A DNA stretch of 64,000 nucleotides, taken from a virus. The stretch is from the IMG/VR virus record IMGVR_UViG_3300025151_000029, positions 6,118 through 70,117 of that record; one strand, 5' to 3'. Below, piece by piece: positions 7,547 to 63,259 of this stretch. Both the position numbers and the translations under genes were made by a program. The notes under the pieces were generated by a model. That model was not told where the DNA came from. It made no database searches and worked only from the letters and a program-made list of their open reading frames with translations. Position 1 is the stretch's first letter. Every line of letters begins with the position of its first letter.

Positions 7547-7566
7547 TGCAGCACCTACGGTAATGA

Positions 7567-8619: not shown

Positions 8620-8999
8620 TACTTACCCTCGGCCAGCAACTCACCAAGTTGCGCATAAAGATTATCGAGATCCTTTTCCTTCTTGGCCGCTGCCGCACGA
8701 TCTTCCATATCGGTCCTATACTTCTTCGCGCTCACAAGACCTTCGATGAGACCCTGCATACCACCGGATCCGCCACCAAGCAGAGAGCCCATAGCGCTCG
8801 TAACTTGCTCCGCATGAGCGTCACGATCAAAACCCTCTTGCTGATAGAACTTGTCGCGCCTACTCGACAGACTTTTTGCTACGGCAGGTTTCTTCGCCGG
8901 AGTAACGATAGGCTTTTTCTTCAGTGAAGTCTCGCCCGGCGCAGTCATCGCACCAGAGGAAAGCTTAGGTACACCACTAATCTCGGGCATTTCAGCCAT
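8619..8999 (-). CDS. Hypothetical protein (126 aa)
   Basis: Start and stop overlap both neighbours. Confidence 0.6.
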   Translation of the reverse strand: MAEMPEISGVPKLSSGAMTAPGETSLKKKPIVTPAKKPAVAKSLSSRRDKFYQQEGFDRDAHAEQVTSAMGSLLGGGSGGMQGLIEGLVSAKKYRTDMEDRAAAAKKEKDLDNLYAQLGELLAEGK

Positions 9000-13176: not shown

Positions 13177-13193
13177 CTCTCAAAGTAGAAACA

Positions 13194-32715: not shown

Positions 32716-35196
32716 TTAAAAGACGTCCCAGCCGTCGTCAGACTCAGCTACTGTTACCGGTGGTTGCAGCGGCTTAACAGCTTCAACCTTCCGGCTAATC
32801 TTTTCTGTTGATTTAATTTTAACGTTCGCAGGATCGAATACAACGACTTCTGGCGGCGTACCGCTTGCCGCTTTACCTATGATTGAGTCATATCCTGCGT
32901 CTTGAGCGATAAGCTTTGCCTTCTTAGCTACTGAGGGTTGCGGTCTTGCAGCTTGACCAATGCCTCCTCCTATCAAAGAATTATAAATCTGTATTGGATT
33001 AACGTTCTCGCTCTCAAGCATCTCTAGCTCTTTCGTCCGACCATGCTTTTTTAAGGCCCTAATCCAATTTTTCCTTTCCGAACTAGTAAGGGTCAACGAC
33101 CCCCCGAGGTTAAGGGGATTTTTAATATCAACCTCAACGGTCATTAGGTTTCCCGACTCTGGCGCGGGGCCACCCAGTACCGAACTTTTAGGTATTTTCA
33201 GAGCAAAGCCTCGAGCTAACTCACGGTCCGCACTTAGATAAACGCCTGCCCCATATTGACCCGTAGGGCTAACGCGAAACTCAGTAAAACTTTTCGGTGA
33301 ACCAACGTAAAGTTCTACTTTTCCACCTTTGGACAACTGTTCGACCGTCAGTGGTTTACTTAGTTTTTTTTTCACTTGGTCGGCGGCTCCGCCCGTCTCT
33401 TCGAGCAACTGACGATCCCTCATTGCCTGCCGCTTCATGGCGTCGACTTGCTCAAAATAGTCTGCCTCGTCACCGACGAAGCCACCTCGGGCAGCAGCTT
33501 GCTCCGCCCGAACCTCGCGCTCAAATTCTTCTTGTGACTGAGGTTTAGGTTTCGCCGCCTGCTTCTTCGGGGCGCGTTTTTCGAGCTTGTCCAAGCGCTC
33601 GGATACATCGCTCGGCGAGAGCGCACCACGCTCGAGCCTAGCCTTCGTGTTGCGTAGGCGCTCTACGATTACGTTGGACTGACCACCAGCAAGCCCAGCC
33701 TTGTCTGCATCCGCAATGAGCTTGTCTAACCGACTAACAGTTTGAGCCTTCAACTCATCATCTGCTGTCGGCTTCTTCTTAAGTCGAGGCAGGTCCTTCG
33801 CCGGTGCCTGCGGCTGTCCCCCTCTTGTTCGGCCCGTGCGCCTCCTGTCAGAGATGTCACGGTCGTCTGACGCAGACTTGAACCCAAACTCACCCTTCTT
33901 GTTGCGGGTGACAACCATGCCCCCAGCCTTAGCTGCGTCAAGCTGCTTACGAGCAGCGTCATAGCTCTCAGCCGGCAGACTACGCAGGTAATCCATCTCA
34001 ATCTGATTGTACTGAGTTGGCTTGGCCGCCTGCTGTGCAGCCTCTTTCTGTGCGGCCGACTCCGCAATACGGCGCTGAATTCGCTGCCTACGTCGCCGCT
34101 CCAAATTAGCTGCACGCTTATTGGTACTTTGAGTAGTAAACTCCTCATACTGCTGCTTAGTCATGTAGAAGTTCGGTACATCGGCCTCTGTAGGCTCGGG
34201 GCCCCTCTCCCTACGGGGCTTCGCCCTGTGAGCCTTCTTAAGCTGCTCAAGCTCCATCTGAGCGCCTGGACGGACAAATTGTGTCTGACCCCGACGGATG
34301 ACCTTGCGAGGCCCTGTAGGTGTAGGTCCAGAGCCATACTCTTGCGCCGGGTCCTTCCGTGAGCCCCTCAGACGCTTAGCCTCATCCAGTTCGCGCGCAC
34401 GACCACCCGCAACGAACGTTCCCTGACCACCCGCAAACTCGCCGACACTACCCTTGCCGTACAAATCTCTATCGATTTCAGAGGTCAATCGCTGCGCCTT
34501 ACCCGCTGCCTCGGCCCGTTGCCGATCAGACCGCTCCCGCTCTTTAGTACCCGCCTTCTTAAGTTTCGCGTCTGAACGCTTTGACCTCTTTACCTTAGCC
34601 AAAAAGTCTTTCTCGCCCTTCTCGAGCGTCCTCTCTACTCCGATGTTCTGAACCAGAACCTCAAGCTTCTCATTCATCTCCTTGATGCCCTGAGCATCAG
34701 TAAGCTCACCTGCATCGACTCGGCGCTGGACGTCATTAATAACCTGACGCCCCTCGACTCTCAGAGGATGGTCTGCCGGAACTGATTTCATGGCCCTAAT
34801 AGCCTTACCAGGAATGAACGGAACCAGAGCCCCTGCGAGACCAATACTTGCGATCTGACCAAGCTCAGAAGAGCTTGCGTCATCCATTACGCCACGACCC
34901 AACTGAAGACCCGTAGAAGTCAAATCAGAGATCGGTGTAGGGTCGACTAATGATAGACGGTCTGCACCCTTAATCATCTTATCTATTGGACGCTGACCGT
35001 AAAGTGCAGACTTGGCCTTCTGCTCTTCTTCAAGCTGCTTCTCTTGCTCTGGAGTCAGATCACCGAAACCCGCACCCTTAAGAGGGTCTTCGGCGTCGGG
35101 GCTGGGCTGAAGTTCGGGAGGAAGAGTACCGAAACGTGCAGATGTAGCCTCACGTTTCTGCCGCATGATGCGGTCGTAGTCTGTCATATCAGCCAT
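32716..35196 (-). CDS. Toxin-like protein (826 aa) with C-terminal ADP-ribosyltransferase-like domain
   Basis: LYVGS..F..F..GAGVYLS..A..FA..VEVDIKNP..GYDSII..EVVVFDP matches the ART pattern of phage polyvalent proteins. Confidence 0.7.
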   Translation of the reverse strand: MADMTDYDRIMRQKREATSARFGTLPPELQPSPDAEDPLKGAGFGDLTPEQEKQLEEEQKAKSALYGQRPIDKMIKGADRLSLVDPTPISDLTSTGLQLGRGVMDDASSSELGQIASIGLAGALVPFIPGKAIRAMKSVPADHPLRVEGRQVINDVQRRVDAGELTDAQGIKEMNEKLEVLVQNIGVERTLEKGEKDFLAKVKRSKRSDAKLKKAGTKERERSDRQRAEAAGKAQRLTSEIDRDLYGKGSVGEFAGGQGTFVAGGRARELDEAKRLRGSRKDPAQEYGSGPTPTGPRKVIRRGQTQFVRPGAQMELEQLKKAHRAKPRRERGPEPTEADVPNFYMTKQQYEEFTTQSTNKRAANLERRRRQRIQRRIAESAAQKEAAQQAAKPTQYNQIEMDYLRSLPAESYDAARKQLDAAKAGGMVVTRNKKGEFGFKSASDDRDISDRRRTGRTRGGQPQAPAKDLPRLKKKPTADDELKAQTVSRLDKLIADADKAGLAGGQSNVIVERLRNTKARLERGALSPSDVSERLDKLEKRAPKKQAAKPKPQSQEEFEREVRAEQAAARGGFVGDEADYFEQVDAMKRQAMRDRQLLEETGGAADQVKKKLSKPLTVEQLSKGGKVELYVGSPKSFTEFRVSPTGQYGAGVYLSADRELARGFALKIPKSSVLGGPAPESGNLMTVEVDIKNPLNLGGSLTLTSSERKNWIRALKKHGRTKELEMLESENVNPIQIYNSLIGGGIGQAARPQPSVAKKAKLIAQDAGYDSIIGKAASGTPPEVVVFDPANVKIKSTEKISRKVEAVKPLQPPVTVAESDDGWDVF

Positions 35197-41577: not shown

Positions 41578-41664
41578 AGCCCATTGCATTCCTACCAGGC
41601 CTTCGGGTCTGGTGGGTCTACTGTGCGCTTTATCCTTTCCCTAAAACAACAACAGGAGGGCATC

Positions 41665-42054
41665 ATGTCCCGACGTCAATACCGTGTGATCGTTGCTGGT
41701 TCGCGCACTGCATCCAGCGTTTACATCTACTCCTTACTCGAGCGCAAGCTTGACCGGATTCTGAAAAACAAAGCTGTGACCCACGAGATCATAATCGTTT
41801 CAGGCACAGCCAACGGCGCAGACAAACTCGGTGAAGAATACGCCCGTTCCCGATTCTTCAAGGTCGAACGTTACCCGGCAGACTGGGACCAATACGGCAA
41901 GCGTGCAGGCTACATCCGAAATGCGGAGATGGCAACAGACGCCGACGCCCTCGTCGCACTCTGGGACGGAGAGTCTCGAGGCACAAAACACATGATCGCT
42001 ATCGCAAATCAAATGGGTCTTCCTACCCGAATCATCAACTTCAAGGAGCAATGA
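41665..42054 (+). CDS. SLOG-superfamily (YspA/DUF2493-like) protein
   Basis: VIVAGSR, IVSGTANGAD, PADW..GKRAGYIRN, WDGESRGTKHMI. Confidence 0.85.
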   Translation: MSRRQYRVIVAGSRTASSVYIYSLLERKLDRILKNKAVTHEIIIVSGTANGADKLGEEYARSRFFKVERYPADWDQYGKRAGYIRNAEMATDADALVALWDGESRGTKHMIAIANQMGLPTRIINFKEQ

Positions 42055-49350: not shown

Positions 49351-51489
49351 CTACTCGGCCTCAATGGCCATATCCGCTGCGTTTCTGTCAACGCAGTAGC
49401 ACCGCGTTGGCGCACCATCGACACGCACGACACGACTGCGCGCTTTCTGCCTGCCCCCACTAAGCTTCAGCCACTCTCGATCTTTCCATCTCGAAATGAT
49501 CTCATCAGGCTCATGCCCAAGTTCACGCATGAGGTTGTTGAACGCTGTAGTCGTAACGGCAATCCTGTCCCAATCTTCACGCTGATCCCAGGCTCCGACC
49601 CAGCCTTGGCTCGGTGCTTTGGTGTTGCCCTCTCGATCACGCTCACCTCGGCCCCAGAACCTTTTCTGATTCACAGCGCACCAGGTAAGGAAGTCTTGCA
49701 GCGCAGCCAGCGGCCTGTCAGCATCGTGGCCTGCATGTTCCTGGGACTCCAGCAAACACGTGAAGGGATCGACGCGCGGATGCGGCACCCCCAAACTGTG
49801 CACAATACTCGCTGTGACTTCGAGCACAGCAAGGTGCCCGGCGTGTCGGCGTGCCACTGCTGAACCTGCGATCTCAGAGTACTTCTGCCGCGCGACCTGG
49901 AACACACTACGAATATCACCGTGCCTCTCTGTGTTGGCTACGAGGTACTCCACGACCTTCCGCCCCAGGTGCCCGTAAGTCCTTGCCAGTATCGCCTGAG
50001 CCTCTTCACTTGCAGTTGAGCCCACGACGACGTCGTCTCCCAACGGCTTGCCCTTCAACGACAGGACGCGTGCTCTGGTTCCTGCGTCCTGCGAGAACGA
50101 AGTGGCCGCACCTTCACCGCTACTGATCAAGATCGAACGCCACGACTCTGTATGCCTTGTGCCGTCGACTGAGCCTCTACCCCTACCCTGGCCCTGGCAG
50201 AAGTCATAGATGACATCACGCACGATTCTGGTGTGCCTTGCGCGCTTTGTCTCGTCCAGGATGAGAGGCAGATTCTTGAGGAACCCACTCGTCCTCTCGA
50301 TCCACACCTTAGTTGCATCCCAAGAGTACATGGCTGTCGGGTAGGACTCTGCCGGTCGACCCCAGACTGATGCTGCAAATCGTAAGGCTGTGGTCTTTCC
50401 ACCACTCGTTTCACCGCTGAAGTCGAGCACGAATCCAGGAATGCGCAAAACCTCAAGGAGAGGAGCCGCAGCACTGGCGTAAGCTGCGATGTACATGTAG
50501 GGGAAGTCCTGCACCAGCCGCATCGCATCAAGCCATTCGTTCCAGGTGCCCTTCGTTTTCCAACCACCCGCTAGAGTTTCCAGGCCAGTGGGTGGCGTAA
50601 GTGAAAAGTCACGGTTCGCGTTAGCGCTGTTCGAGTAAAAGGCATCCGGCAGCAGGAAACCTCCATCAGGCTGCCAGCCCATCGACGAGGCTGACTGTAC
50701 TACAGGGAATCGTGCTGCGTTCTCAGCGTCGAACTCTGACAAGTAGGACACCATATGCAGTGTGTTGTTTGTGCTGACTGGTGCGTCCCAGTTTGAAAGC
50801 GTGATGATCTTTGACGTGTCAACAATTGTACGTCTTTCGACTACACGAGAGCGCCAGCCACTAGCACCTCGCCAAACCAGCAGACGCTTGGTCTCGCCCG
50901 TGAGGACATCGACTGTACGCCCCGCAATAAAGATTGGTGCGAGGGCAATGCGTGTACGCGAGATGGAGCCATCGGGCTGACCGGCCAAACGATAGACTCC
51001 GTTAAAATCTATTTCGAATCCACGCGGTGCCCTGAGTGTGGCCAGGACTTGACGTGTCACTATGCTTGGTGGTGGAGCGCCACCATCCAGCATGATGTCG
51101 ATCGTCGGTAGCTCACCCAGTTGCTCCTCGATCTCTGCGAGGATCTCCTCTGAGCGTCGACGCCTCACCTCGTTCGCGAGGTTCTCGATGGTTCTACGAT
51201 ACTGACGTGCTCTCTGCACTTGCCTCGGCACCATCTCAATCATGGTGAGGTTTGTGAGCATCTGTGTCTCGTCAGCGAGCCACGCCTCAACCATCATGTT
51301 GATTACATCGGGATCTTGTACTGACTCCCAAGCTGCTCGGTGTTCGGGTCGACCACCCTCACTCAACCGATCAATCAGATTACGGATTACCTCTGAACTA
51401 CGTTCAACAACAGAGGCTTGACCGCCCTCGTCATTTTGGCTCTCAGGGCTCTCCATCCCCACTGTGCCATCAACTTCCATTATCACCAC
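49351..51489 (-). CDS. DUF927/Cch-like replicative helicase
   Basis: MGWQ, FSGETSGGKTT..ASVWG, LPLILDE, GQGRGR, ILISSGE, G..AR, YGHLG. Confidence 0.85.
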   Translation of the reverse strand: MVIMEVDGTVGMESPESQNDEGGQASVVERSSEVIRNLIDRLSEGGRPEHRAAWESVQDPDVINMMVEAWLADETQMLTNLTMIEMVPRQVQRARQYRRTIENLANEVRRRRSEEILAEIEEQLGELPTIDIMLDGGAPPPSIVTRQVLATLRAPRGFEIDFNGVYRLAGQPDGSISRTRIALAPIFIAGRTVDVLTGETKRLLVWRGASGWRSRVVERRTIVDTSKIITLSNWDAPVSTNNTLHMVSYLSEFDAENAARFPVVQSASSMGWQPDGGFLLPDAFYSNSANANRDFSLTPPTGLETLAGGWKTKGTWNEWLDAMRLVQDFPYMYIAAYASAAAPLLEVLRIPGFVLDFSGETSGGKTTALRFAASVWGRPAESYPTAMYSWDATKVWIERTSGFLKNLPLILDETKRARHTRIVRDVIYDFCQGQGRGRGSVDGTRHTESWRSILISSGEGAATSFSQDAGTRARVLSLKGKPLGDDVVVGSTASEEAQAILARTYGHLGRKVVEYLVANTERHGDIRSVFQVARQKYSEIAGSAVARRHAGHLAVLEVTASIVHSLGVPHPRVDPFTCLLESQEHAGHDADRPLAALQDFLTWCAVNQKRFWGRGERDREGNTKAPSQGWVGAWDQREDWDRIAVTTTAFNNLMRELGHEPDEIISRWKDREWLKLSGGRQKARSRVVRVDGAPTRCYCVDRNAADMAIEAE

Positions 51490-51580
51490 CTGCTTTTATT
51501 ACGCTTTCAAACCCGACAATGAGCCACGCGCGAGTCGCCTCGACGTAACTCAACCAAGCAAAATCCTGCCCGACGAGACC

Positions 51581-51638
51581 AGACTATCGAGTTTCATTAC
51601 ACCGTGTCAAACCACAAACTGTAACATCCTGTTATACT
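51581..51638. promoter_or_regulatory. Divergent promoters
   Basis: TTGACA-18-TAGTCT on minus (51610-51581); TG-T-TATACT on plus (51630-51638). Confidence 0.45.
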
Positions 51639-51661
51639 TACCAAGCTGACAAGGAGGTCTC

Positions 51662-52033
51662 ATGCCAGCCGCGAAAAAGAGTGCGAGCACAACCGCTGCA
51701 CCGAAGAAAAAAACTGCGCCTAAAAAGGCTGCACCGAAGAAGACAGCAGCGAAGAAAGCCGAACCTAAGAAGGCACCTGCCAAGAAGCCTGCGGCGCCAA
51801 AAGTAAACGCTCCTCCTGCTTTCAAGCCCAAGTCCGTACACCTACTGACAAGTGCGGGCGAGTACACCCTCAGATTCGACACGGAAGCGTCCTTCAATGA
51901 AGCGATGCAAATCATTGAGAGTGCCCCGAGTGAGTCTGGTGGTCGACGTTACGTTCCGCAACGAACGGTTGTGTGCGCAGGAAAGCCATATCGATTTACG
52001 CTGGTCCTCAAGTACCAAGTTCAAGACGCTTAG
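51662..52033 (+). CDS. Histone H1-like Lys/Ala/Pro-rich protein with small C-terminal domain
   Basis: AAGGAGG RBS; repeated APKK/AAKK. Confidence 0.7.
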   Translation: MPAAKKSASTTAAPKKKTAPKKAAPKKTAAKKAEPKKAPAKKPAAPKVNAPPAFKPKSVHLLTSAGEYTLRFDTEASFNEAMQIIESAPSESGGRRYVPQRTVVCAGKPYRFTLVLKYQVQDA

Positions 52034-52251
52034 TACTTGTGTTCCCAGCCAGTCTGTAGGTCCTCTACAGAAAGCTCCACAGTACTGAAAGTCATTGAGC
52101 AACACTCACACCTGCGTCGGCGGTACACCCATTCCTGAGTGTACCGACCGACGTATTCTTTAAGTGTGACAAAGTTCTTTGAGACGTTCACAGAGTCGGA
52201 AGGTCTTGAGTCAATCACTCGTGTCTTATTTCCACACTTGAAACAATACAT
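52030..52251 (-). CDS. NrdR-like N-terminal zinc-ribbon protein (no ATP cone)
   Basis: MYCFKCG..TRVIDSR..RRRRCECC..FSTVE. Confidence 0.75.
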   Translation of the reverse strand: MYCFKCGNKTRVIDSRPSDSVNVSKNFVTLKEYVGRYTQEWVYRRRRCECCSMTFSTVELSVEDLQTGWEHKY

Positions 52252-52252
52252 T

Positions 52253-54256
52253 TCACGGTGCGGGCGGAAGATTGATGGGAAGAATGTTGTCGACCTTTCG
52301 TATCTCAAACCCTCCATCAGAGAGAATGTTGACTGTGTTCGGCTCCACATTGTTCTCAATGAGATGAGCCGCAGTCTCCTTTGTCATGGTGAGAATGTCA
52401 GACATACTGAACCCGCGCTCTTCAAGCTTACGAGCACTACGACTAATGACGCTCAACCCACCTTCATTGCGTACCTTCTTACGGGTTGTCTTCTTACGCT
52501 TCGGCGGCTCAGCCTTTGGCTCAGGCTCTTCCTCTGACGCGTTCCATCCTTGACTGACCTTGTCCATATCGATGATCGTCCAACCCTTCGGTGGGCGTCC
52601 CATCGGACGTACGGTGCTCGCGATAATTACCTGACCCTCAAAGTTTAGGAAACCCTTCATGACTGCGGACAATGTCCGAGTATCCCAGGCCCTATCGTAA
52701 GGAACCAAGATCGCAGGCTTGTCGTTACCGAGCTTCGAGGCAACCGCCATACTCACTGCGGTGATTACAGTAGCCCACTCAGCACCAGACAAAGCACAGT
52801 GCAGACGCCCGTCACGCTCGAACCCCATACGGAATACTTCGCGATCTCCCTCCATGAGTTCAATCTTGAAGACCCAGTGCTCAGGCAAAAACTTCTGCAC
52901 AAGCTGCGTGAACGTTCGTGTTTGGTCCGCGAGCAGATGACCAACCGCAGTCTCGCAAGCGTTGCGAAGATCCTTGTAGCTATGCTGATCTCTTGCAAGC
53001 TCGTTCACACGCGTCGACGCATGTGTCAGGTCATTCCATCGATTGAGAACAGTCTCCATCTTGCTGAGCGCATTCATCGCGACTTCCAGCCTTGACTGAG
53101 CTTCATTGACAGGAATGGCACGACCGTCCTTCGCACGCACCTCAGTGCCATGCACTCTAGCGATCTCTGCTTGTATTGCGCCCAAGCTTTGATTTGCCGA
53201 ATCAATCAACTTATCAATCCCCACGATCTTCTCTAGCACTGACTTCGACTGCGTCTCCCATTGGCTGAGTTGATCTTGGTAGAACGTCTGACATGCTTGC
53301 AGGTGTGCAAGTCCCACCTGGCTACTACAGACCGGGCATTGGTCCATGCTGTGCTTTACAGCGACATCCACAATCGCGATAGCCGAGTCAACGTTCTCAC
53401 CCTTCTGCGGTAGTTGAGTGAGCAATTCTTTCTTCTGGTGCTCCAACGTCATGAGATTCTTTTCCCATGCGTTGATCTGCTCCGCCAATCGATCCAACTC
53501 AGACTGCTTCTCAGCCTGAGTCATGCCGGTATTCGCCGCTCGGATAGACGCGTCTAAGATCTCACGAGCTTCCGCAACAGCAAACCTCATACGCTGCATA
53601 GTTTCGTCAGTAGGCTTTGCGTCAATCGTATCACCGATGTTCTCGATGATAAGTTCTGCGCCCTTGATCTCCTTTGCAATCTCACGGGACCGAGAGTTTG
53701 AGTAGTTCAATACCTCGACGAGAGTCTTTGTTTCACTCAGGTTCCGACCTCGGTGTTCCGCGATGTCGTTGTACTTCCCATGCAGTTCATCTGGAATACA
53801 CGTAAGAATGTGCTGTCGTTGCACGTCACTACTCGACCACTCCAGGAATGCCTTGCGCGCCGTTGTTGCTGAGCCCGAGAGCGCTGCAGCGACCGACCGA
53901 TGGACAAGACTCTCTGGGCCTGGCCCATCATGTTGAGGGCGCTTGACCTTGCCCTCCTCTCTACGCGCGTTGTAGTTAGCCACGCTACCGTCACTAAGCT
54001 TTGCCGTAACCCCAAGCTCATCTCCTGGTGCCAGTGTGAGTAGCAGAGCAGCGTCAGAAACAATGCTCCTACCAACGATGTCATCTGCTGAGCCTGAGAT
54101 AGCCAGCTCAACAGCTTGTACGATTGTACTTTTGTGGCTTGTGTTTGAACCCACAAGCAAGGTCTTTGGACCCAAGTCGATACTCCATGCATCTCCGTTG
54201 GGTCGAGGTGACTTCAAGTTACTGAAGACGTGCTCAACGTATGGTCGCGTAGACAT
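52253..54256 (-). CDS. SbcC/Rad50-like ABC ATPase
   Basis: LLVGSNTSHKSTI, coiled coils, zinc hook CPVC, LSGAE signature. Confidence 0.75.
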   Translation of the reverse strand: MSTRPYVEHVFSNLKSPRPNGDAWSIDLGPKTLLVGSNTSHKSTIVQAVELAISGSADDIVGRSIVSDAALLLTLAPGDELGVTAKLSDGSVANYNARREEGKVKRPQHDGPGPESLVHRSVAAALSGSATTARKAFLEWSSSDVQRQHILTCIPDELHGKYNDIAEHRGRNLSETKTLVEVLNYSNSRSREIAKEIKGAELIIENIGDTIDAKPTDETMQRMRFAVAEAREILDASIRAANTGMTQAEKQSELDRLAEQINAWEKNLMTLEHQKKELLTQLPQKGENVDSAIAIVDVAVKHSMDQCPVCSSQVGLAHLQACQTFYQDQLSQWETQSKSVLEKIVGIDKLIDSANQSLGAIQAEIARVHGTEVRAKDGRAIPVNEAQSRLEVAMNALSKMETVLNRWNDLTHASTRVNELARDQHSYKDLRNACETAVGHLLADQTRTFTQLVQKFLPEHWVFKIELMEGDREVFRMGFERDGRLHCALSGAEWATVITAVSMAVASKLGNDKPAILVPYDRAWDTRTLSAVMKGFLNFEGQVIIASTVRPMGRPPKGWTIIDMDKVSQGWNASEEEPEPKAEPPKRKKTTRKKVRNEGGLSVISRSARKLEERGFSMSDILTMTKETAAHLIENNVEPNTVNILSDGGFEIRKVDNILPINLPPAP

Positions 54257-54286
54257 AGAACCTCCTAGTTACGCTTAGTTTTTCTG

Positions 54287-54315
54287 AGTGTATAAAAGTG
54301 TTACCAGTGTGTCAA
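54287..54315 (-). promoter_or_regulatory. Sigma70-like promoter TTGACA-17-TACACT
   Basis: Upstream of the AGGAGG RBS of the Rad50-like gene. Confidence 0.65.
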
Positions 54316-54743
54316 CACTTAAAGTCTAACCGTGCCCAGGAAAGGTAGTCGTCATCCGGCAACACCTCTACATTTTCGATCTGGTTAAACTTATTTTCTG
54401 CTGGACACCAACAATAAACGTGCTTTCCCGCAGACATGAAGCCCTGCACAATCTGTGCTGTAGCTTTTCCTACAGTGCGTACCGTGTCATCCGAATACAT
54501 GGGCACGATCACACCGTGAAACATGGGAGCACCTGTAAAGTCTTTCCCATGCGGTACGTCATGGCACCAGGCTTTCCACCCGCCAAGAGCCGCACTTCGT
54601 GTTTGGTAATCGTCTCGACCAGAGATCACCTTGGTTTGCCAACCATCAAGTACAAGAGACCTTGCGATCTGTGTACACCATTGCTCGATATCTCCTGGTG
54701 CATCCTGCTTCGAATGCGCCAAGAACCACTTAGACGTTTCCAT
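54312..54743 (-). CDS. Hypothetical protein, possible TIR/NDT-like flavodoxin fold
   Basis: WFLAHSKQD and GKATAQIVQGFMSAGKHVY. Confidence 0.55.
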   Translation of the reverse strand: METSKWFLAHSKQDAPGDIEQWCTQIARSLVLDGWQTKVISGRDDYQTRSAALGGWKAWCHDVPHGKDFTGAPMFHGVIVPMYSDDTVRTVGKATAQIVQGFMSAGKHVYCWCPAENKFNQIENVEVLPDDDYLSWARLDFKC

Positions 54744-54750
54744 TTCTCTC

Positions 54751-57501
54751 CTATATGTCTTTGAGGCTGCGTCCGACTTCAGCCTCAGCGGTCATCTTAA
54801 CATCCCACCCTGGGATAGTCACAGTCATTGCTTCCTCTACGACCCGTCTGGCTTCTTCCAGCTTGGGCGGCAGGGGCTCACCTTTCACCGGTTTCCAGTC
54901 CGGCGGCAACCCCTCAGGCAAAGGAATCTCTACTCCGATTGAATCATGGCATTGGTGAATCATCCCGGTGCCCTGACCTGCGTAATCAAAGGGGAACGCA
55001 CCAATCACGGCTTGCTCTGCCAGCCTCATGATTGAGGACTCTGCTGCAAGGATTGGGAAGTTCACCACCTCATTCTTTTTGCCGTCTGACAACGGACCTG
55101 ATCTACGGCCAAAGACCGGCTCCTCCATAAAGCCCTGTTGGCTGTACTGCCCGAGCATTTGATTCCAGGCGTCGAGCCATTCCGGCTCTGCCTTCAACCA
55201 CTTGTTGTGGAAGTGGCGAACTTCTCGAGGTTCAAATTTCAGGTACGGCATCTTACCGTCGTCAGTCTCTGTACTCGTCAGAACCTGCCATACCGTCATC
55301 GGATCTGCCCAGTAGATCGATGCATACCGAAACGTCTTCATGACATCGCGCATAGCCTTGGCTTCTCCACCAGTAGGCTTACGGCTCAAGCTAAAACCAT
55401 CAGGTCCCCAACCGCTAGCGTTCTTGAAGTCACTACCGAACACGTCATAGGCCAGAAGGTTGTGCGGATCTTTACCGGTCGCGAAGCACTCAAGCAAACG
55501 CGGGATCTGCCAGTAGCAGGCAGTGATTCTCAGATGCGCCTGATCAAGATCTGCACCAACAAAAATCCGACCAGGAGGCGCACTAAAGATAGACTTCAGT
55601 CTTCCTTGTCCCTTTCGGTTGCCAATGTTCTGAAGGTTTGGTCCAGAGCTTGATAGCCGACCGACGCTTGTTACGTGTGCATTCCATGTTGAGCGAACAC
55701 GCCCATCTTCATGGACCAACCCCTTCTTTGGGTCCTGCGACCGACGTCGTAAGGGCACGAGTACTGTGCCAAGGATCTTGTTCTTCTCTCTCCTGTAAAG
55801 CCGAAGCTCCTTCAGAAATGATTCTTGACTACTGCTCAACTGACCTGATGCGAGGTGCCCGCGTATTACAGCATCGCCTGTACCTGGAGCGCCTGTTTCC
55901 GTATAAAACTCATTCGTCGACATCGAAGCAGGAATCCCAAGGTTCCAGTCATCGTACAGAAGCTTCCGAATCTGATCGACACTGCCAGGATTGAAATCAC
56001 TGTTGACGTATTTCTGAAGCGCCTTGTAGCGCTTCTTCACTGAAATCTCGTACTCACACTCCAGTGATCCACGCAACTCTTGGTCGATCCACACACCCGA
56101 CTTGTGCATGCCAACACACATCTCTTGTGTCGCGTGGTCGACTTCATTCAGATTCCATAAACGGTTTGCTGACCAGGAGTCCGGCTTGAGCCCTTCAGAT
56201 ATTGGCCTGAAGGCTCCCATCTCGGTGGCCGCATCAATCAACGGCACAGTGATTCTAGCGTTCACCACGGTATCAATGATGTTGTACCGCAGAAGCTCCT
56301 CGTCATCCTGACTGCCCGTTGAGATCTTCGTGCCTTTCTCCGTGGTCTCCCACCGCTCGACATCAGTCAGCACTGACCCGATTGTCTTCAAGCCCTTAGG
56401 CAAGTCTGGCGACCGAAATCGAGCATGAAAGAGTGTGTCCACCAGGGGCTCCGGTGTGACGCCAAGCTGAGTCTCGACGACCATACGATCGTAGTAGCCT
56501 GCATTGTGACCGACCCAGACACGTCCATCAGTAAAGGCCCTACGTAAGATGTCGACAATCTGACGCTCTTGCTCTTGAGGGTAAATACGTGTGACCCCAT
56601 CAGTGGAGAGCAAGCCAACACCAACCGCTCGGCAATTCTGTGCAGGCTTAGTGCGTGCAGCCTTCCCGTTCTCATCCAGGTCTGGGATTGCAATCGCAAC
56701 GGTACGCAGCGCGCACTCTAGAGGTTCGATGCCGTCAGTCTCGACGTCGTACACCCAGAAAGGTGCAGGCTGCGCGAGAAACTCTTCCAGCGCCTCAGGA
56801 GAAGGGTTCATCAATGAGTCAGGTTCGGTCCATCGCAAGTTGTCGTTGAACCAGCGCATAGCCTTCGAGATGTCTGCCTCGATAACTGGTCGCCAGTTTG
56901 GCGCTCTCGTTACGTAGTGCGGACTAAATGTCGCCAGCATTTTCTTGTTCGTGGGCTCAAGACTCCAGATCCACTCATCGTCGATGTACATGGGGCCGCC
57001 ACGTAGTCCGTGGATGCTACCGGATTGACCTGACAGTACACGAGTAGCAGTCTTACCCATCGCTATGAAGTTGTTGTAGTTGCCCAACACGCTCATGAGG
57101 CGTGGTCGACAACAGTCAATCGGGTGAGGAAGCGGGTCTTTGTTCTGCGCCACGCGCCTCTTGTTTAATCTATCGAGTGATTTTTCCATTCGGTTCCATG
57201 CGCCCCCCTCTTTTCCGGGAGGCTTGCATGCGATCACATTCTCAAGGTCGACATGAGAACGGTTCAGCCCTGCTGTAGCGAGAAACCTTGACCACTCCGA
57301 TGCGGCAGACCCCATGATGGGCCTACCCGAACGAACGTCCTCAGCACGAGGAGCTTCACCCAAGGCCAGTATCTTTGCCCCCGGATGGAACTCTCCCGTG
57401 ACGGGACGCCATTCATCTTTCTGCAGTGCTCCGTTAGGTCCGAGAGGACACTCATCGCAACGGGCACCACATTGTTTTGGATCTTTACTTGTGGTCATCA
57501 C
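54751..57501 (-). CDS. polA: Family A DNA polymerase with N-terminal family-4 UDG-like domain and 3'-5' exonuclease
   Basis: GEAP..NVIACKPP (UDG); DVETDG, GHNAGYYD, YNIID (ExoI-III); GRLSSSGPNLQNI; motifs A DLDQAHLR, B KTFRYASIY, C HDS. Confidence 0.92.
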   Translation of the reverse strand: MMTTSKDPKQCGARCDECPLGPNGALQKDEWRPVTGEFHPGAKILALGEAPRAEDVRSGRPIMGSAASEWSRFLATAGLNRSHVDLENVIACKPPGKEGGAWNRMEKSLDRLNKRRVAQNKDPLPHPIDCCRPRLMSVLGNYNNFIAMGKTATRVLSGQSGSIHGLRGGPMYIDDEWIWSLEPTNKKMLATFSPHYVTRAPNWRPVIEADISKAMRWFNDNLRWTEPDSLMNPSPEALEEFLAQPAPFWVYDVETDGIEPLECALRTVAIAIPDLDENGKAARTKPAQNCRAVGVGLLSTDGVTRIYPQEQERQIVDILRRAFTDGRVWVGHNAGYYDRMVVETQLGVTPEPLVDTLFHARFRSPDLPKGLKTIGSVLTDVERWETTEKGTKISTGSQDDEELLRYNIIDTVVNARITVPLIDAATEMGAFRPISEGLKPDSWSANRLWNLNEVDHATQEMCVGMHKSGVWIDQELRGSLECEYEISVKKRYKALQKYVNSDFNPGSVDQIRKLLYDDWNLGIPASMSTNEFYTETGAPGTGDAVIRGHLASGQLSSSQESFLKELRLYRREKNKILGTVLVPLRRRSQDPKKGLVHEDGRVRSTWNAHVTSVGRLSSSGPNLQNIGNRKGQGRLKSIFSAPPGRIFVGADLDQAHLRITACYWQIPRLLECFATGKDPHNLLAYDVFGSDFKNASGWGPDGFSLSRKPTGGEAKAMRDVMKTFRYASIYWADPMTVWQVLTSTETDDGKMPYLKFEPREVRHFHNKWLKAEPEWLDAWNQMLGQYSQQGFMEEPVFGRRSGPLSDGKKNEVVNFPILAAESSIMRLAEQAVIGAFPFDYAGQGTGMIHQCHDSIGVEIPLPEGLPPDWKPVKGEPLPPKLEEARRVVEEAMTVTIPGWDVKMTAEAEVGRSLKDI

Positions 57502-57731
57502 ACAACGACGAGCTTGTCCATGACCTCGTCGTAGGAGCCCAACACCCTCACGTTTTTCATCATCAACCCGTCATGGGTTTTTGTCGAAAGAACAATGATG
57601 GTGTTCGGCGCATGAACGCCAACCTGACCTTCACTAACTTGATCGCCTGGATAGACGTACACGATGTGATCGTCATTGATGCTGATAGGGCTAGACTGCC
57701 CCCCGCCGATTGTTTTGAATTCGTGAAACAT
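57498..57731 (-). CDS. Small hypothetical protein
   Basis: GGAG before MFHEFK; overlaps polymerase start. Confidence 0.5.
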   Translation of the reverse strand: MFHEFKTIGGGQSSPISINDDHIVYVYPGDQVSEGQVGVHAPNTIIVLSTKTHDGLMMKNVRVLGSYDEVMDKLVVV

Positions 57732-57826
57732 ATTATCTCCATGTAAAAGTTGAGGCATCTATTCGACCACCCACATGCCTCCCTGCTGGGCCCTAAGGGG
57801 AAACAGGAATCCCCTTGGTCTACGAC

Positions 57827-58405
57827 TTAGCTAACGATACCCTGCGCCGTGGTAGCGGGAGGTGGCAATGATACCCCCGCAGCGGGAACTGGAGCCCCAT
57901 TCGTCACAGCGGGCTTCGCTGCAGTCGTCGGTGCAGCCTTGGCCGCTCCCTTCATGGCATCAAACTGAGCCTTCGTCAGCCACTTGCCAATCTCGTTGTA
58001 TGATCCCTGAACACCCTTCTGACCGGGAATGAACTCGATGTGAGCCTTACGACCACCGTTTTGGGCGGTCAAGAACCAGTTCGTGTTGATCTCGGCAGCG
58101 CCTTCGATATCAGCCGCCGAGTACCCCAGTGACTCAAGGATAGAGCGCAGCACAGCCATGCGGCCCCGCAGTTGCTTATCGGTCAAGTCAGTGAGCATTG
58201 CTCCTGTGTCGTCGAACGGAACACTCAAGAACGAAAACATCTTGAATCCGTTCTCAAACTGAACGTGCACTCGACGAGTGGTGGGCTTGTCGGTGGGTGC
58301 CCGCTCGACGTTTACGATGCTGACTTGATAAAAGCCTGCTTCGGGTACAGATGAACCAAGGGCGCTGATCCCCTGAAATGCGTTGCCAGATACTTTGATA
58401 GCCAT
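57827..58405 (-). CDS. Putative OB-fold ssDNA-binding protein (DUF669-like)
   Basis: VPEAGFYQVSIVNVE..YNEI pattern; follows Sak4-like gene. Confidence 0.55.
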   Translation of the reverse strand: MAIKVSGNAFQGISALGSSVPEAGFYQVSIVNVERAPTDKPTTRRVHVQFENGFKMFSFLSVPFDDTGAMLTDLTDKQLRGRMAVLRSILESLGYSAADIEGAAEINTNWFLTAQNGGRKAHIEFIPGQKGVQGSYNEIGKWLTKAQFDAMKGAAKAAPTTAAKPAVTNGAPVPAAGVSLPPPATTAQGIVS

Positions 58406-58426
58406 GATGGCTCCTTATTGTTGGAT

Positions 58427-59404
58427 TTACTTTGTTGGTGGTGGTGGTGGTAAGCTCGGAGACGATGCAGAAGTCTGCTTTGCCTCCGAGAAGTCGAAAA
58501 GCGATTGCTTGCTTTGAGTTGTGAGTATACCTCGAGCGATACCATCCTGGCAAGCCCATCGCAGGTGTAGGTTGTTATCATTACGCCCTGACACCGCTGA
58601 CTGAATCGCTTCCTGTACAGGCATTCCGCTAACGATTGCATCGGCCACAAGCTGAGCAACATCATCCTGCCATTCCAGACCGGCAAGTCTGCTGAGGTTG
58701 TAGTTGCTCTCCCCCGCACGCAGAATCTCTCGGATATTACCCGGAGTCTTAGCGGAGCAGACACCCGTACGATCTCCAGTCACCCACTCTGGGTTGGTAG
58801 GATCGCAGTAGTACACACTCGGAAACCATGGGTCTGGGTACGTCGGATCAATCATTGATCGAACACTGATGTCGCACCACGACGGCAACGTCTCAACTTG
58901 ATTACGGGAAGGCACATCGGGCCCGCCAGGGCAGAACCGACCGTCAGCGTTTGTACCAGGTAGCCTCTCGTGAAAGTTCATGAGAAGGTGAACGCCTAAG
59001 TAGCGTGACGTATGTGCGATCTCCAACAAGTATTGATTCAACTGTTGGTACGGGTAGAACTTATCTTTCTTGCCGCTACGTCCCGTCGGCGCTGCATCTT
59101 GCCACTCCAGCATAGAGCGCTGGCAAAGGTGACTTGTGTCATCGACAACGACGGCGTCATAGTCTCCCTTATCACGAAGCTCAGCAAAGCTTTTGAGCAT
59201 GCTTACAAGCTCAGGCAGGTTCTTGGGTGAGTCCGCATGAACGGATGGAGTAAACCCAAGTTCGTTCTGCGCGACTAAAGTGATCGCTGACGGTACACCC
59301 AGGAACAATGCCCGTGGGAAAGCTGCCAACGCATCACTGGTTTTCTTCTGCTTTGGCTTCCCATAGACGGTAACCATCACATTCGGTGGTGTTTCACTAC
59401 TCAT
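58427..59404 (-). CDS. Sak4-like/AAA_24 ATPase (single-strand annealing)
   Basis: VTVYGKPKQKKTS, VVVDDTS, LMNFHE, WCD. Confidence 0.7.
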   Translation of the reverse strand: MSSETPPNVMVTVYGKPKQKKTSDALAAFPRALFLGVPSAITLVAQNELGFTPSVHADSPKNLPELVSMLKSFAELRDKGDYDAVVVDDTSHLCQRSMLEWQDAAPTGRSGKKDKFYPYQQLNQYLLEIAHTSRYLGVHLLMNFHERLPGTNADGRFCPGGPDVPSRNQVETLPSWCDISVRSMIDPTYPDPWFPSVYYCDPTNPEWVTGDRTGVCSAKTPGNIREILRAGESNYNLSRLAGLEWQDDVAQLVADAIVSGMPVQEAIQSAVSGRNDNNLHLRWACQDGIARGILTTQSKQSLFDFSEAKQTSASSPSLPPPPPTK

Positions 59405-59412
59405 GATCTCTC

Positions 59413-60402
59413 CTAAATTGTTTTCGCTGCTTCTCCGTAAAAGCAGAATTTAATACCTGGACACGCTCCGTACCGTCCGATGCACGAAGTCTCGTGTTGT
59501 ACCTTGGGCCAATCCCAAAAGGTTGGTGAGTCTACCTCAAGTCGCGCTAATCGGTGCTCCTCCCTCCAGAGCATATGCGCAAAATGAGCATCTCTATGCG
59601 GGGTAGCAGGAACCATGGGACGTGCCACACGCCAAGGCTCCTGTGTTTGAATCAAGTTCAGTCCGAGTCCACCGAAGTTGGACCCATACATCTGCCTACC
59701 CATAATACGAAAGGCTGCGAAGCCGCCATCAATTGCGTAACCATCAACACTTTTGTTCGCCTGTACACGAGCCTGATGCTTGTGATCCCAGATGAAAGTG
59801 CGTCCACCTCGTTCCTTGGTCACCATGTCGAGTCGGCGTGTAAGTACCAAAGCTGCGCCGGAATCGGGATGCCCCGGACAGTTCAGCGGTGTAGGTTGAA
59901 TGATTCCTCCGTCCCACGCTTTGACTTTCACAGCACGACGGTTGAAATCGGCATCGTCAAGATGCACAACCCAAAGACCCCACTCATTATCCTTGTTCCC
60001 CAGCACAGCAGTCACGGGGTACTCAACTTTGATAACATTCCCTGGAGGTTCCGGATGTCGCGCCATGTACCGCCTAAACGTTTCAAGCATGCGCTCCAGG
60101 TGCTCATGCCCACCATTGGTGTCGCACCACATCTCTACGGCTGTTTCCGGATCCAAAAAGACACTGGGGTCATCGTGCCATGTCTCATCAACCCAGACAC
60201 CCTCATCAGAGGATGCCCCCCAGATGGCATGTTGATGCGCCTGGAGGATGTGTCCCATGCTGCCACGAGTCAAAGCATGGGCAGGAATCATGGTCAGGTT
60301 GAGTCGTTGCCCGTAGGCAAACAACTGGGGGCAACGAGAGAAGGTTCCGATACGTGACCACCCACGCGATGACCGACCAGCGTCGATAAGGATCTTTCTC
60401 AT
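59413..60402 (-). CDS. PD-(D/E)XK / Cas4-like exonuclease
   Basis: CPQLF, RGSMGH, VE, RLDMV..WDHK, C-terminal C..C..C. Confidence 0.75.
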   Translation of the reverse strand: MRKILIDAGRSSRGWSRIGTFSRCPQLFAYGQRLNLTMIPAHALTRGSMGHILQAHQHAIWGASSDEGVWVDETWHDDPSVFLDPETAVEMWCDTNGGHEHLERMLETFRRYMARHPEPPGNVIKVEYPVTAVLGNKDNEWGLWVVHLDDADFNRRAVKVKAWDGGIIQPTPLNCPGHPDSGAALVLTRRLDMVTKERGGRTFIWDHKHQARVQANKSVDGYAIDGGFAAFRIMGRQMYGSNFGGLGLNLIQTQEPWRVARPMVPATPHRDAHFAHMLWREEHRLARLEVDSPTFWDWPKVQHETSCIGRYGACPGIKFCFYGEAAKTI

Positions 60403-60572
60403 CTGGCCGCCTTTAGATTATTGGTGTGCCAACGATGCTCTGCCTTGCGCGCAAGCACCCACATTCGTTGCTTCTGGGCTTCCTTCATTACCCTTCGCGG
60501 CTCTACCCCCTCGGCTTCTAGCTTCGCCCAGGGGATTGTCTTGCGGTGAAAGCGCTCGTCACTCAGATCCAT
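60399..60572 (-). CDS. Small basic protein (57 aa), not in ORF track
   Basis: MDLSDERFHRKTIPW..AAR*; overlaps both neighbours. Confidence 0.5.
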   Translation of the reverse strand: MDLSDERFHRKTIPWAKLEAEGVEPRRVMKEAQKQRMWVLARKAEHRWHTNNLKAAR

Positions 60573-62497
60573 CATGCTACCTCCAGCTTGCTGATAATGC
60601 TGCTTACAAGTGCGTCTTCGTCTTCCATGCCGAGAAGCTTGTCGCCTAGACCATCAAGCTCATCCGCCTTCAAGAAAGTCTCGATGGGCCCAAACTTGTC
60701 GACCAAGATCTGAACCACACGCTCATCGTACGTGCCCTGCGCAACCACGACCTTGAGTAGTGTGGGACTGCCGCCCAGGCGGTCGAACCGACCCTTCCAC
60801 TGTAGGAAGTCACCAGGCTTCCACGGCAGCATGGCAAAGATGGCGAGGTTCGCAGTCTGCATACCATCGACGCCTGTTCCGACGCTCTGCCCGGTCGCTA
60901 CCAGGCAACATGCTTTATCACTCTGCCGGAACGCATCGACCATCTCGTCGCGCTCGGTTTCGGACACACCACCGTGTGCCATCCACACAGGCACGTCCTT
61001 CTGGGCCTCGTCGCCCTTGCTCAGTTGTTGACGCAACTGGTGAGCCCACAACTCCGTCTCTCTGCGCCGAGCGGTGAAGATCACCACCTTGCCTCCGCCC
61101 TTGAGACCTTCAATAGCCTCTTCGATGACGTACTTGCGCTTGCGACTGCACGCTTCCGCAAGTCGAGCCTCGACGACACGCTCACGACCTTCGGGCCTGT
61201 TTCCAGCCTCCTTGTTCATTTGACGTACGGCTTGGGTAAATGTCTGATCGTCACTAAACCTGTCGGCGCGATTCAACTCAGTGTTCGTTAAGTAGTCAAC
61301 CTGGACTCGCGTGCTGGGTAAGCTGGAGTGAGACTCACTATAAGGAACCTCATGAACCATGAAGCTACACCGAGCCTTGAGTTCCTCAATGTGAGACGAG
61401 CCTGAGTCATCCAATCCGCCATATGTGCCAGGTCTTGCAGCACAGTAGCGATGAGCAAAGTTCGAGTAGCTGTGAGAGAACCCACCAGGAGCGAGTAGAT
61501 CAAGCTGACTCCACAGTCGACGAGGTCGCCCATCATCAAGAGGAGTTGCTGTGAGGCCCATGCGGAGACGGACGCTCTTGATTCGCGATACTTCCATCAC
61601 AGCGACGGCTCGTGCGTGACGGTTCACCTGTGAGTTTGGGTTCCTACTGGCAGAGGTCTTTCGCTTTTCAAAGCGCACAGTACCATCAACATTGTGTACA
61701 GCCCGCCAACGCTTACTGTTACCGTGCGTATGAATCTCATCGAAGATCAAGATTGACGGTTGAATCTGTTGAATCAACTTTACGTTGTCGGCAATGGACT
61801 CTGCTCCGACGATGACAAACTTTCGCTGACCCTTTTCGCGGCACATGTGCGCGTAGTCCTCGAACGTCTGATCTTTTTTGCGGACTTCAGCCTGTGGCTT
61901 CACCCGGAACGGAACAACGTTGGAGTACTCTTGTACCTGACTCCACCAAACGTGGCGAGCTTTGGCTGGGCAGACGACAACAACGTCGCCGTCGCGACAT
62001 AAGGCAGCCATAATAGCCCCAAGCGTCTTTCCTGAGCCGCAGGACCACACATTCATGGCATATGGGCGGGTGTTAGCCCACGCTGCGCCCATAAGTTGGT
62101 AGGGCGTAGCAATATCCGAGACATGACCCTTGATTTGCCGCGACATGATGGCGTTGCGTAGCAAATCTCGCCCTTTAGCCTCGAGTTTTTGTCGATCGTC
62201 CGGTTTATTAGACCAAGGAGTGACGATCTCGTGCATCGTAGCCCTGCACCAGAAGTGAACGTTGGACGAACGCAAGATTGACTCGAACAACCACGCCGCA
62301 TGTAGCGGTGCTTTGACGAGCCACTCGTCTCGCTCGCCTAAATACTCTGGATTGGCGTTCTTAAGTCGCACTCGCCGCGTATCGAACGAGTTCACGTACA
62401 CCATGCATCCAGGTATCAAAGCTTCTACCTGGCTCATGATATCGATGTCTGACTTGAAGGTTCTAAATTCGTATTCGAGAGTTGGTTGGTCGTTCAT
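60572..62497 (-). CDS. SNF2-like superfamily 2 helicase
   Basis: CGSGKT, FDEIH, GLTATP, GVDG, QWKGRFDRLG. Confidence 0.88.
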   Translation of the reverse strand: MNDQPTLEYEFRTFKSDIDIMSQVEALIPGCMVYVNSFDTRRVRLKNANPEYLGERDEWLVKAPLHAAWLFESILRSSNVHFWCRATMHEIVTPWSNKPDDRQKLEAKGRDLLRNAIMSRQIKGHVSDIATPYQLMGAAWANTRPYAMNVWSCGSGKTLGAIMAALCRDGDVVVVCPAKARHVWWSQVQEYSNVVPFRVKPQAEVRKKDQTFEDYAHMCREKGQRKFVIVGAESIADNVKLIQQIQPSILIFDEIHTHGNSKRWRAVHNVDGTVRFEKRKTSASRNPNSQVNRHARAVAVMEVSRIKSVRLRMGLTATPLDDGRPRRLWSQLDLLAPGGFSHSYSNFAHRYCAARPGTYGGLDDSGSSHIEELKARCSFMVHEVPYSESHSSLPSTRVQVDYLTNTELNRADRFSDDQTFTQAVRQMNKEAGNRPEGRERVVEARLAEACSRKRKYVIEEAIEGLKGGGKVVIFTARRRETELWAHQLRQQLSKGDEAQKDVPVWMAHGGVSETERDEMVDAFRQSDKACCLVATGQSVGTGVDGMQTANLAIFAMLPWKPGDFLQWKGRFDRLGGSPTLLKVVVAQGTYDERVVQILVDKFGPIETFLKADELDGLGDKLLGMEDEDALVSSIISKLEVA

Positions 62498-63167: not shown

Positions 63168-63240
63168 TGGGGTGTAGTTCAATTGGCAGAACGCCTGGTT
63201 GTTACCCAGGAAGTTGGTGGTTCAAGTCCATCCGCCCCAG
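63168..63240 (+). tRNA. trnN: tRNA-Asn (GTT)
   Basis: Acceptor TGGGGTG/CGCCCCA, D-arm GTTC/GAAC, anticodon arm CCTGG-TTGTTAC-CCAGG, T-arm GGTGG-TTCAAGT-CCATC, discriminator G; CCA not encoded. Confidence 0.92.
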
Positions 63241-63259
63241 CCTTTGACCTGGAGAGACT

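Follow-up and report, generated by a model that had tools for sequence, protein, structure and literature searches.

The 64,000-nucleotide stretch analysed here (the window; bases 6118-70117 of the 70,117-nucleotide (nt) IMG/VR record IMGVR_UViG_3300025151_000029, estimated to be 98% complete) carries on its minus strand, at 54751..57501, a 916-amino-acid (aa) open reading frame (ORF) that fuses a uracil-DNA glycosylase (UDG)-like domain, a 3'-5' exonuclease and a family A DNA polymerase (PolA). Four positions of its polymerase active site, equivalent to T666, E710, Q849 and A852 of the E. coli enzyme, were found to change together across the family, so that its members fall into a Glu-type and a His-type, named here after the steric-gate residue at 710. 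The switch is all-or-none, and the sequence trees indicate that it arose independently at least twice.

Four coupled sites in the polymerase active site

The residue register was checked with HMMER against Taq, with MAFFT against E. coli PolA and T7 gp5, and with a hidden Markov model (HMM) of the family. The HMMER alignment set GADLDQAHLRI opposite LDYSQIELRV, NFPILAAESS opposite NMPVQGTAAD and HDS opposite HDE, the NFPILAAESS stretch alone being weak (1.8 bits). MAFFT alignment of the C-terminal 500 aa gave an agreeing register for motifs A, B and C and for the N845-Q849 helix, as did the family HMM except for E. coli motif B, which it left unaligned; the motif B register is thus that of MAFFT and the T7 row. 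Accordingly, V613, R615, D651, H656, R718, K722, R725 and Y726 correspond to E. coli T666, R668, D705, E710, R754, K758, N761 and F762, and Y730, W731, N814, L818, E821, H852, D853 and S854 to Y766, G767, N845, Q849, A852, H881, D882 and E883, respectively.

The four switch sites, all read from the minus strand, are V613 (codon GTC, 55663..55665; the Thr of the TGR motif, E. coli T666), H656 (CAT, 55534..55536; the steric-gate Glu, E. coli E710 and Taq E615), L818 (CTT, 55048..55050; the minor-groove Gln, E. coli Q849 and Taq Q754) and E821 (GAG, 55039..55041; E. coli A852), which lies one helical turn past L818 on a single helix formed by residues 809-835 of an AlphaFold2 model. Motif B, or the O-helix, with R718, K722, R725, Y726, Y730 and W731, occupies 55309..55350 (minus strand), and motif C (H852-D853-S854; 54940..54948, minus strand) reads HDS for HDE, a family-wide trait outside the switch. 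An earlier note on the stretch 54930-55560, which corresponds to residues 648-858 of the ORF, had reported E710H, Q849L, a new Glu three residues on and HDS, all of which HMMER, MAFFT and the family HMM bore out. Its statement that both catalytic Asp, R668, K758, Y766 and the exonuclease motifs are intact was likewise upheld, by the alignments and, for the exonuclease residues, by their invariance among 80 sequences.

A search of the protein library returned 14,214 matches at E<=1e-3 and 498 at E<=1e-30; the fusion group is very large and almost entirely metagenomic, and relatives with 62-100% identity were found in several sources (Tara Oceans among them), their contigs reaching ~74 kb. For typing, the window protein was taken together with the best 150 of 498 cluster representatives (50% identity clustering), and six of these 151 were dropped as incomplete at the sites, leaving 145. 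His occupied the gate in 69 of them, and all 69 carried Leu (65) or Ile (4) at 849 together with Glu852. The other 76 had Glu (75) or Asp (1) at the gate, with Gln849 in 75 and Glu852 in none. At the TGR Thr site, the His-type showed Val (47), Pro (14), Ile (5), Asn (2) or a gap (1), whereas the Glu-type showed Thr (49), Ser (17), Gly (7) or other residues (3), so that Thr, Ser or Gly was present in 0/68 His-type versus 73/76 Glu-type sequences. When all columns were scanned for association, 666, 710, 849 and 852 were the only ones with mutual information of about 1, and the same four ranked at the top in a separate 80-sequence alignment. Mixed states were found neither in the 145 typed representatives nor in another 116 sequences. 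In addition, 70 loci gathered from IMG/VR with the window protein as the single query, and therefore mostly close relatives, comprised 60 full His-type, one Glu-type and nine truncated sequences.

The earlier note had described the changes as concerted rather than decayed and had proposed an alignment and phylogeny to see whether H710 and L849 co-vary. They do so perfectly among the typed representatives, together with E852 (69/69 versus 0/76), and the catalytic and exonuclease residues are intact: D705, D882, R668, R754, K758, Y766 and N845 were retained in 66-69 of the 69 His-type sequences, with the Arg, Lys and Tyr766 of motif B present in every one. Its list of concerted changes stood only in part, as E710H, Q849L and Glu852 belong to the package, R725, W731 and the HDS motif do not, and V613 had been overlooked. 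Trp at 731 (G767W) is poorly kept (12/69 His-type), and Arg at 725 (N761R; 48/69) is limited to the main His clade, with Q/Q/S in the second His group described below. Tyr at F762 is found in 59/69 His-type and 68/76 Glu-type sequences and is thus a trait of the family. The E883 site showed S40, A11, Q7, G3, E2, three gaps and three other residues in the His-type and A36, S35, Q3, R1 and H1 in the Glu-type, the motif C Glu being recorded in only two of the 145 representatives, both His-type; outside this set, motif C reads HDS in Microcystis phage Mel-JY34 and HDY in virus Rctr197k. On these alignments, HDS/HDA and Tyr762 are family traits, and W731 and R725 are lineage noise.

The protein itself starts with GTG, the next codon being ATG. 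Pfam recognised DNA_pol_A (PF00476) at aa 483-861 with 97.8 bits (cut-off 34.3) and UDG (PF03167) at aa 36-201 with 37.1 bits (cut-off 24.3), whereas DNA_pol_A_exo1 (PF01612) stayed below threshold (17.6 bits against a cut-off of 23.6). The polymerase domain, bounded by PF00476 and by HMMER alignment to Taq and Klenow, spans aa ~440-916 (54754..56184, minus strand). The exonuclease domain, aa ~240-430 (56212..56784, minus strand), was delimited by invariant residues and by structural alignment to Klenow; D252, E254, D338, Y406 and D410 show no variation in the 80-sequence alignment and complete the DEDDy set (Exo I DxE, Exo II D, Exo III YxxxD). The AlphaFold2 model, built on that alignment, had a mean pLDDT (predicted local distance difference test) of 94.5 and a pTM (predicted template modelling score) of 0.92. 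Its top Foldseek match was Klenow 1kfs, with a template modelling (TM) score of 0.80 on the target and an E-value of 3.6e-27, and the structural alignment covers the exonuclease and polymerase domains. As for family A hallmarks, the protein has the motif A and C Asp (D651, D853), the O-helix R718/K722/Y730 and the TGR Arg (R615), and lacks the gate Glu (H656), Gln849 (L818), the TGR Thr (V613) and the motif C Glu (S854).

The N-terminal domain (aa 1-230; 56812..57501, minus strand) resembles family 4 UDGs, as judged from PF03167 and from sequence matches to PDB entries 1ui0 and 1vk2. Its cysteines C15, C18, C92 and C131, kept in 74-80 of 80 sequences, are presumably the ligands of an Fe-S cluster, as in family 4 UDGs. 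Its motif A reads GEAPR against a family consensus of GEAPG, and where that consensus has HP(A/S)F as motif B it reads SPHY, so that the lineage of the window protein has lost the His of this motif; the definitions that we take for family 4 motifs, GE(A/C)PG and His-Pro, agree with the consensus of our alignment.

Two further features of the family were observed. E772 and W775 of P0001 (near E. coli 795 and 798) are kept in 57/69 and 61/69 His-type sequences, respectively, and set the main His clade apart from the Glu-type; they are not found in the second His clade and are thus lineage-specific additions. In addition, many homologues reach 1200-2000 aa through insertions (P0122, P0101, P0099 and others). 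In P0122, an insert of ~170 aa lies within motif B, between KTFRYA and SIYG, and other homologues contain HNH (PF13392) or intein/LAGLIDADG-type Pfam domains; the insertions in active-site motifs are probably inteins.

Repeated origin of the His-type

Trees were built from 509 polymerase-domain columns, with the trait columns 710, 849 and 852 removed for the 148- and 48-row trees and column 666 removed as well for the 63- and 65-row trees. Both FastTree and IQ-TREE, the latter under a site-heterogeneous model, nested the His-type within the Glu-type and split it into two groups. The main His clade held 66 of 148 rows (support 99). The second, after relatives had been added, consisted of nine members (P0197, P0198, P0229, P0270-P0272, P0276, P0279 and P0280; support 99), which lay with six Glu-type sequences in a 15-row clade (support 100). 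A single His clade was rejected by the approximately unbiased (AU) test (delta log-likelihood 104.1, p = 0.005; 63 rows, LG+G4). A third His pair, P0315 and P0345, stood apart in the maximum-likelihood tree, which would bring the number of changes to three; joining this pair to the second group was not rejected (delta log-likelihood 36, p = 0.16), so only two origins are claimed.

Recombination was considered as the source of the second His group and rejected on sliding-window identities. In 16 of 16 thirty-column windows, including those flanking the four sites, the identity of the second His clade to its Glu-type neighbours exceeded that to the main His clade, and therefore there is no sign of a package moved by recombination. 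Such convergent evolution suggests a function for the package.

In all nine members of the second His clade, motif C reads YDS, its His (E. coli H881) being replaced by Tyr; this state was found in six of the 69 typed His-type sequences, some members of the main clade included. Several second-clade members lie on contigs of 77-134 kb and thus belong to a different kind of phage from that of the window.

A proposed rebuilding of the pocket and rival readings

The text of PMC6125688 describes, for KlenTaq ternary complexes, a water molecule hydrogen-bonded to E615, N750 and Q754 (equivalent to E710, N845 and Q849) that reads O2 of the incoming nucleotide. In the same description, Q754 reads the terminal pair at N3/O2 of its template base, and R573 (R668) reads the primer base. 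For Bst, the text of PMC10520511 places Q797, R615, E658 and D830 close together, in electrostatic interaction, with the 3'-OH end of the deoxynucleoside triphosphate (dNTP) above E658. Following these canonical contacts, three of the four coupled sites therefore belong to a single small polar cluster that lies at the nascent base pair, and the fourth, 852, shares the helix of 849. In a KlenTaq saturation study (PMC6345897), Q754 ranks, according to the text, with the positions that tolerate substitution least, which fits a need for compensating changes.

The mechanism that we propose starts from the canonical arrangement, in which E710, N845 and Q849 hold one water that reads the O2/N3 acceptor, with E710 under C2' of the sugar. 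The usual cluster of T666, E710 and Q849, near-universal in family A, is replaced in the His-type by Val, Pro or Ile, by His and by Leu or Ile, with the new Glu852 added. The carboxylate of the cluster would thereby have left the motif A strand (710) for the Q849 helix (852), and His would fill the space beneath the sugar, the other two polar side chains having given way to hydrophobic ones and Asn845 and Arg668 being kept. The enzyme would remain a proofreading, template-directed DNA polymerase of the two-metal kind, with dNTPs as its substrates, and with its T7-like Tyr762 it would also accept dideoxynucleoside triphosphates; what would differ is the build of its sensor for minor groove and sugar. 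Most likely, the package rebuilds the minor-groove sensor; we infer mutual contact among the four residues, a transfer of the Glu710 role to Glu852 and an essentially unchanged substrate specificity.

Taken as a whole, the best explanation, towards which we lean slightly, is that the source is an uncultured tailed phage, that the UDG-exonuclease-PolA fusion is its functional replicative DNA polymerase, and that the pocket has been rewired with substrate specificity essentially unchanged. The record codes for a major head protein, a large terminase and a portal, and the fusion gene is the sole polymerase gene found in the genome.

Several points weigh against this explanation. A thinner first sample gave an AU p-value of 0.042, and the AU tests rest on LG+G4 rather than on the site-heterogeneous model. 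We infer the contact among V613, H656, L818 and E821 rather than take it from distances in the model, and the canonical geometry likewise comes from two papers rather than from our own inspection of structures. The convergent gain of four residues, as reconstructed, looks adaptive, which would suit a changed property no less well than a neutral equivalent. Moreover, a carboxylate at 852 cannot donate the hydrogen bond of Gln849 to the template base, and some minor-groove reading is probably lost or changed. Finally, the genome has many small ORFs with no recognisable function, and another nucleotide pathway may be encoded among them.

Among the alternatives, the one that survives best is that the switch alters the accepted substrate, through relaxed or altered sugar discrimination (ribonucleoside triphosphates (rNTPs) or 2'-modified nucleotides) or through a non-canonical minor-groove face, so that His-type phages replicate, or can replicate, non-canonical nucleic acid. 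The steric gate and the minor-groove Gln, which are the two classic selectivity residues, are indeed both gone, and the existence of at least two origins suggests selection for a property. According to the text of PMC6125688, a laboratory variant of Taq without E615 (E615G, I614M and others) uses NTPs on a par with dNTPs, and the texts of PMC10201439 and PMC13697223 tie other UDG-PolA fusions to thymidine-modified genomes. A His is, however, bulkier than Gly or Ala and still able to block a 2'-OH, and the text of PMC10520511 reports almost no rCTP use by Bst F710Y, so that the family-wide Tyr at F762, kept in 59/69 of the His-type, argues against rNTP use. The genomes do not favour this alternative either. 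A six-frame search of five genomes, namely this one and the complete genomes of three His-type relatives and one Glu-type relative, in which control genomes were matched, found Thymidylat_synt, dUTPase, Adenylsucc_synt (PurZ) and TGT/DpdA in none of the five. No nucleotide-metabolism domain was found in the 51 ORFs of the genome scanned with Pfam; nine more ORFs were scanned with PHROGs, and ~20 short ones fell outside both scans. Most known phage base modifications, moreover, face the major groove, with which these residues make no contact, and a Glu-type relative (L073) has a like replication module.

The earlier note had seen no base-modification genes such as purZ, and this holds in all five genomes for the four families searched. 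The consequence that it had drawn (a modified base, rNTP tolerance or priming) found no support, given that absence, Tyr762 and the presence of the phage's own DUF927 primase-helicase. The link of other UDG-PolA enzymes to thymidine-modified genomes was also considered and is unsupported here, the five genomes having neither a thymidylate-synthase homologue nor a dUTPase. On balance, we regard altered substrate acceptance as doubtful. We hold it to be unlikely that family A polymerases have, in the Val/His/Leu/Glu package, a second natural way of selecting nucleotides, arrived at by convergence on two or more occasions, that changes the accepted substrates (sugar- or minor-groove-altered nucleotides, dNTP/rNTP balance).

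Alternatively, the switch could tune fidelity or lesion handling, easing extension or insertion at abasic sites made by the UDG domain, or setting mismatch extension against proofreading. As described in the text of PMC13697223, the UDG domain of SP15-like UDG-PolAs excises deoxyuridine in front of the fork, and insertion of deoxyadenosine serves to bypass the resulting abasic site; the text of PMC10520511 lists Klenow R668, E710 and N845 as fidelity residues, with Q849A altering the error spectrum. The link to the UDG domain runs the wrong way, however, as canonical motifs (motif A Glu and motif B HP) are rarer in the His-type (27/69) than in the Glu-type (52/76), and the window protein's own UDG domain is among those without the motif B His. 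In addition, neither an X-family polymerase nor a ligase was noticed in the scanned ORFs, in which no search was aimed at either. We consider this reading quite unlikely.

Inteins usually sit in essential sites, and homologues bear an insertion at motif B, seen in the alignment and read as an intein. This, together with the strict conservation of the pattern in 69 representatives (50% clustering) and 60 IMG/VR loci, the retention of all metal ligands, O-helix and exonuclease residues, and the fact that no other polymerase was found in a genome so nearly complete, makes it very improbable that the polymerase domain is catalytically dead or decaying and its substitutions relaxed-constraint noise, even though E710, Q849 and E883 are each described as important for catalysis in Klenow (text of PMC10520511).

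Genome context, known relatives and significance

The fusion gene lies in a conserved replication module (49351..62497, minus strand) annotated with PHROGs and Pfam, whose other genes, all on the same strand, encode a DUF927 primase-helicase (49351-51489), an SbcC-like protein (52253-54256), a Sak4-like annealing protein (58427-59404), a PD-(D/E)XK exonuclease (59413-60402) and an SNF2-type helicase (60572-62497); the SSB gene is found elsewhere in the genome. The order helicase, exonuclease, Sak4-like protein, polymerase and SbcC-like protein is shared with L073, whose polymerase is Glu-type and 34% identical to that of the window. Since a Glu-type polymerase sits in a module of like order, the switch is not tied to a different replisome.

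Within the module but on its opposite strand (51662-52033, plus strand) lies the gene for a 123-aa protein whose N-terminal half is rich in Lys, Ala and Pro; this protein gave a weak, sub-cut-off match (25 bits) to the histone H1-like nucleoprotein HC2. An ORF of 109 aa with an NrdR-like zinc ribbon (52030-52359, minus strand), which shares ~107 nt with the 3' end of the SbcC-like gene in a different frame, is a candidate gene only. Elsewhere in the window, an 826-aa protein (32716-35196, minus strand) ends in an ART-PolyVal ADP-ribosyltransferase domain (38.4 bits), and a 156-aa protein (41584-42054, plus strand) has a YspA/cpYpsA-related SLOG domain (55 bits), the only domain of nucleotide-binding type seen among the early genes. 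A giant ORF of ~2920 codons (2-7546, minus strand; 4928-13687 of the genome) has weak tape-measure-like and endonuclease-VII-like segments and presumably encodes a virion or ejection protein. Finally, one tRNA-Asn (GTT) gene was found at 63168-63242 (plus strand).

Compared with Klenow, Taq and Bst, the window protein shares the exonuclease and polymerase fold (TM 0.80 to 1kfs) and the equivalents of D705, D882, R668, R754, K758, Y766, N845 and H881, but differs by T666V, E710H, Q849L, A852E, E883S, Tyr at F762 and an extra UDG-like domain, at 15-20% identity. Like it, T7 gp5 is a replicative PolA of a phage that has Tyr at F762 and a proofreading exonuclease, but it keeps the Thr, Glu, Gln and HDE and has no UDG domain. 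In lab-evolved Taq (I614M/E615G), the gate Glu is also lost along with neighbouring changes; there, according to the text of PMC6125688, a small gate residue goes with a gain of NTP use, whereas the window protein has a bulky His and a distal Glu under natural purifying selection. DpoZ of the 2-aminoadenine phages co-occurs with PurZ, whereas Adenylsucc_synt was absent from the five genomes searched here.

The N4-like UDG-PolA enzymes (cluster 17 of Czernecki et al. 2023, PMC10201439) combine, as described in the text of that paper, a family-4-UDG-like domain with exonuclease and polymerase domains, and their UDG catalytic residues are said there to be unconserved, as in the window protein. 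Their tblastn matches are partial, however (~27-33% identity over 20-34% of the query), the polymerase of the N4-like phage ZQ2 has a Glu gate, and Phe is given at position B3 in the text, against Tyr here; the alignments thus place the window protein outside cluster 17. The SPO1- and SP15-like UDG-PolAs (Missoury et al. 2026, PMC13697223) share the UDG-exo-PolA layout described in the text, and the family consensus here has GEAPG and HP. The UDG domain of the SP15-like enzymes is described as scanning the template ahead of the fork. Unlike here, where no 5-hydroxymethyluracil pathway was found, their phages have thymidine-modified DNA, and the gate described is the normal E710-type with Phe, against His and Tyr in the window protein. 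Going by the same description, SP15-like enzymes also carry two large inserts and a C-terminal domain (1306 aa in YerA41), for which the 916 aa of the window protein leave no room. In the deposited-phage collection, from which near-identical records may be missing, the closest full-length identity was ~24%. The UDG-PolA of the cultured Microcystis phage Mel-JY34 (L076, 3471-5903) has an Asp gate (DLDRADL), with Gln849 kept and an HDS motif C.

The text of the 2023 reclassification (PMC10201439) describes the catalytic residues as strictly conserved in all 19 clusters and names a replacement of the TGR Thr in one cluster only, by Ala. No mention of a His gate or of the loss of Q849 was found in the text, as distinct from figures and supplements, of PMC10201439, PMC13697223 or a virioplankton survey (PMC6302109). 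A literature search found neither E710H, E615H, E658H or E480H nor, in the text of the sources, a description of a family A steric-gate histidine in phage polymerases. Thus, the active-site variant is real and non-random, and apparently undescribed in the text searched, although a figure logo may show it; the UDG-exo-PolA architecture was known already. PolA diversity surveys that screen for canonical motifs could miss the His-type group, a screen of this kind not having been found stated in the text of PMC6302109.

In conclusion, E710 and Q849, the textbook determinants of sugar and base-pair checking, have been treated as near-immutable, and a large natural clade does without them. The package is a ready-made natural experiment on active-site epistasis and a new scaffold for polymerase engineering, and matched Glu-type and His-type enzymes in a like module (L073) allow a clean biochemical comparison. 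If a change in substrate acceptance were true, a large group of uncultured phages would replicate by rules unlike those of the textbook steric gate and minor-groove check.

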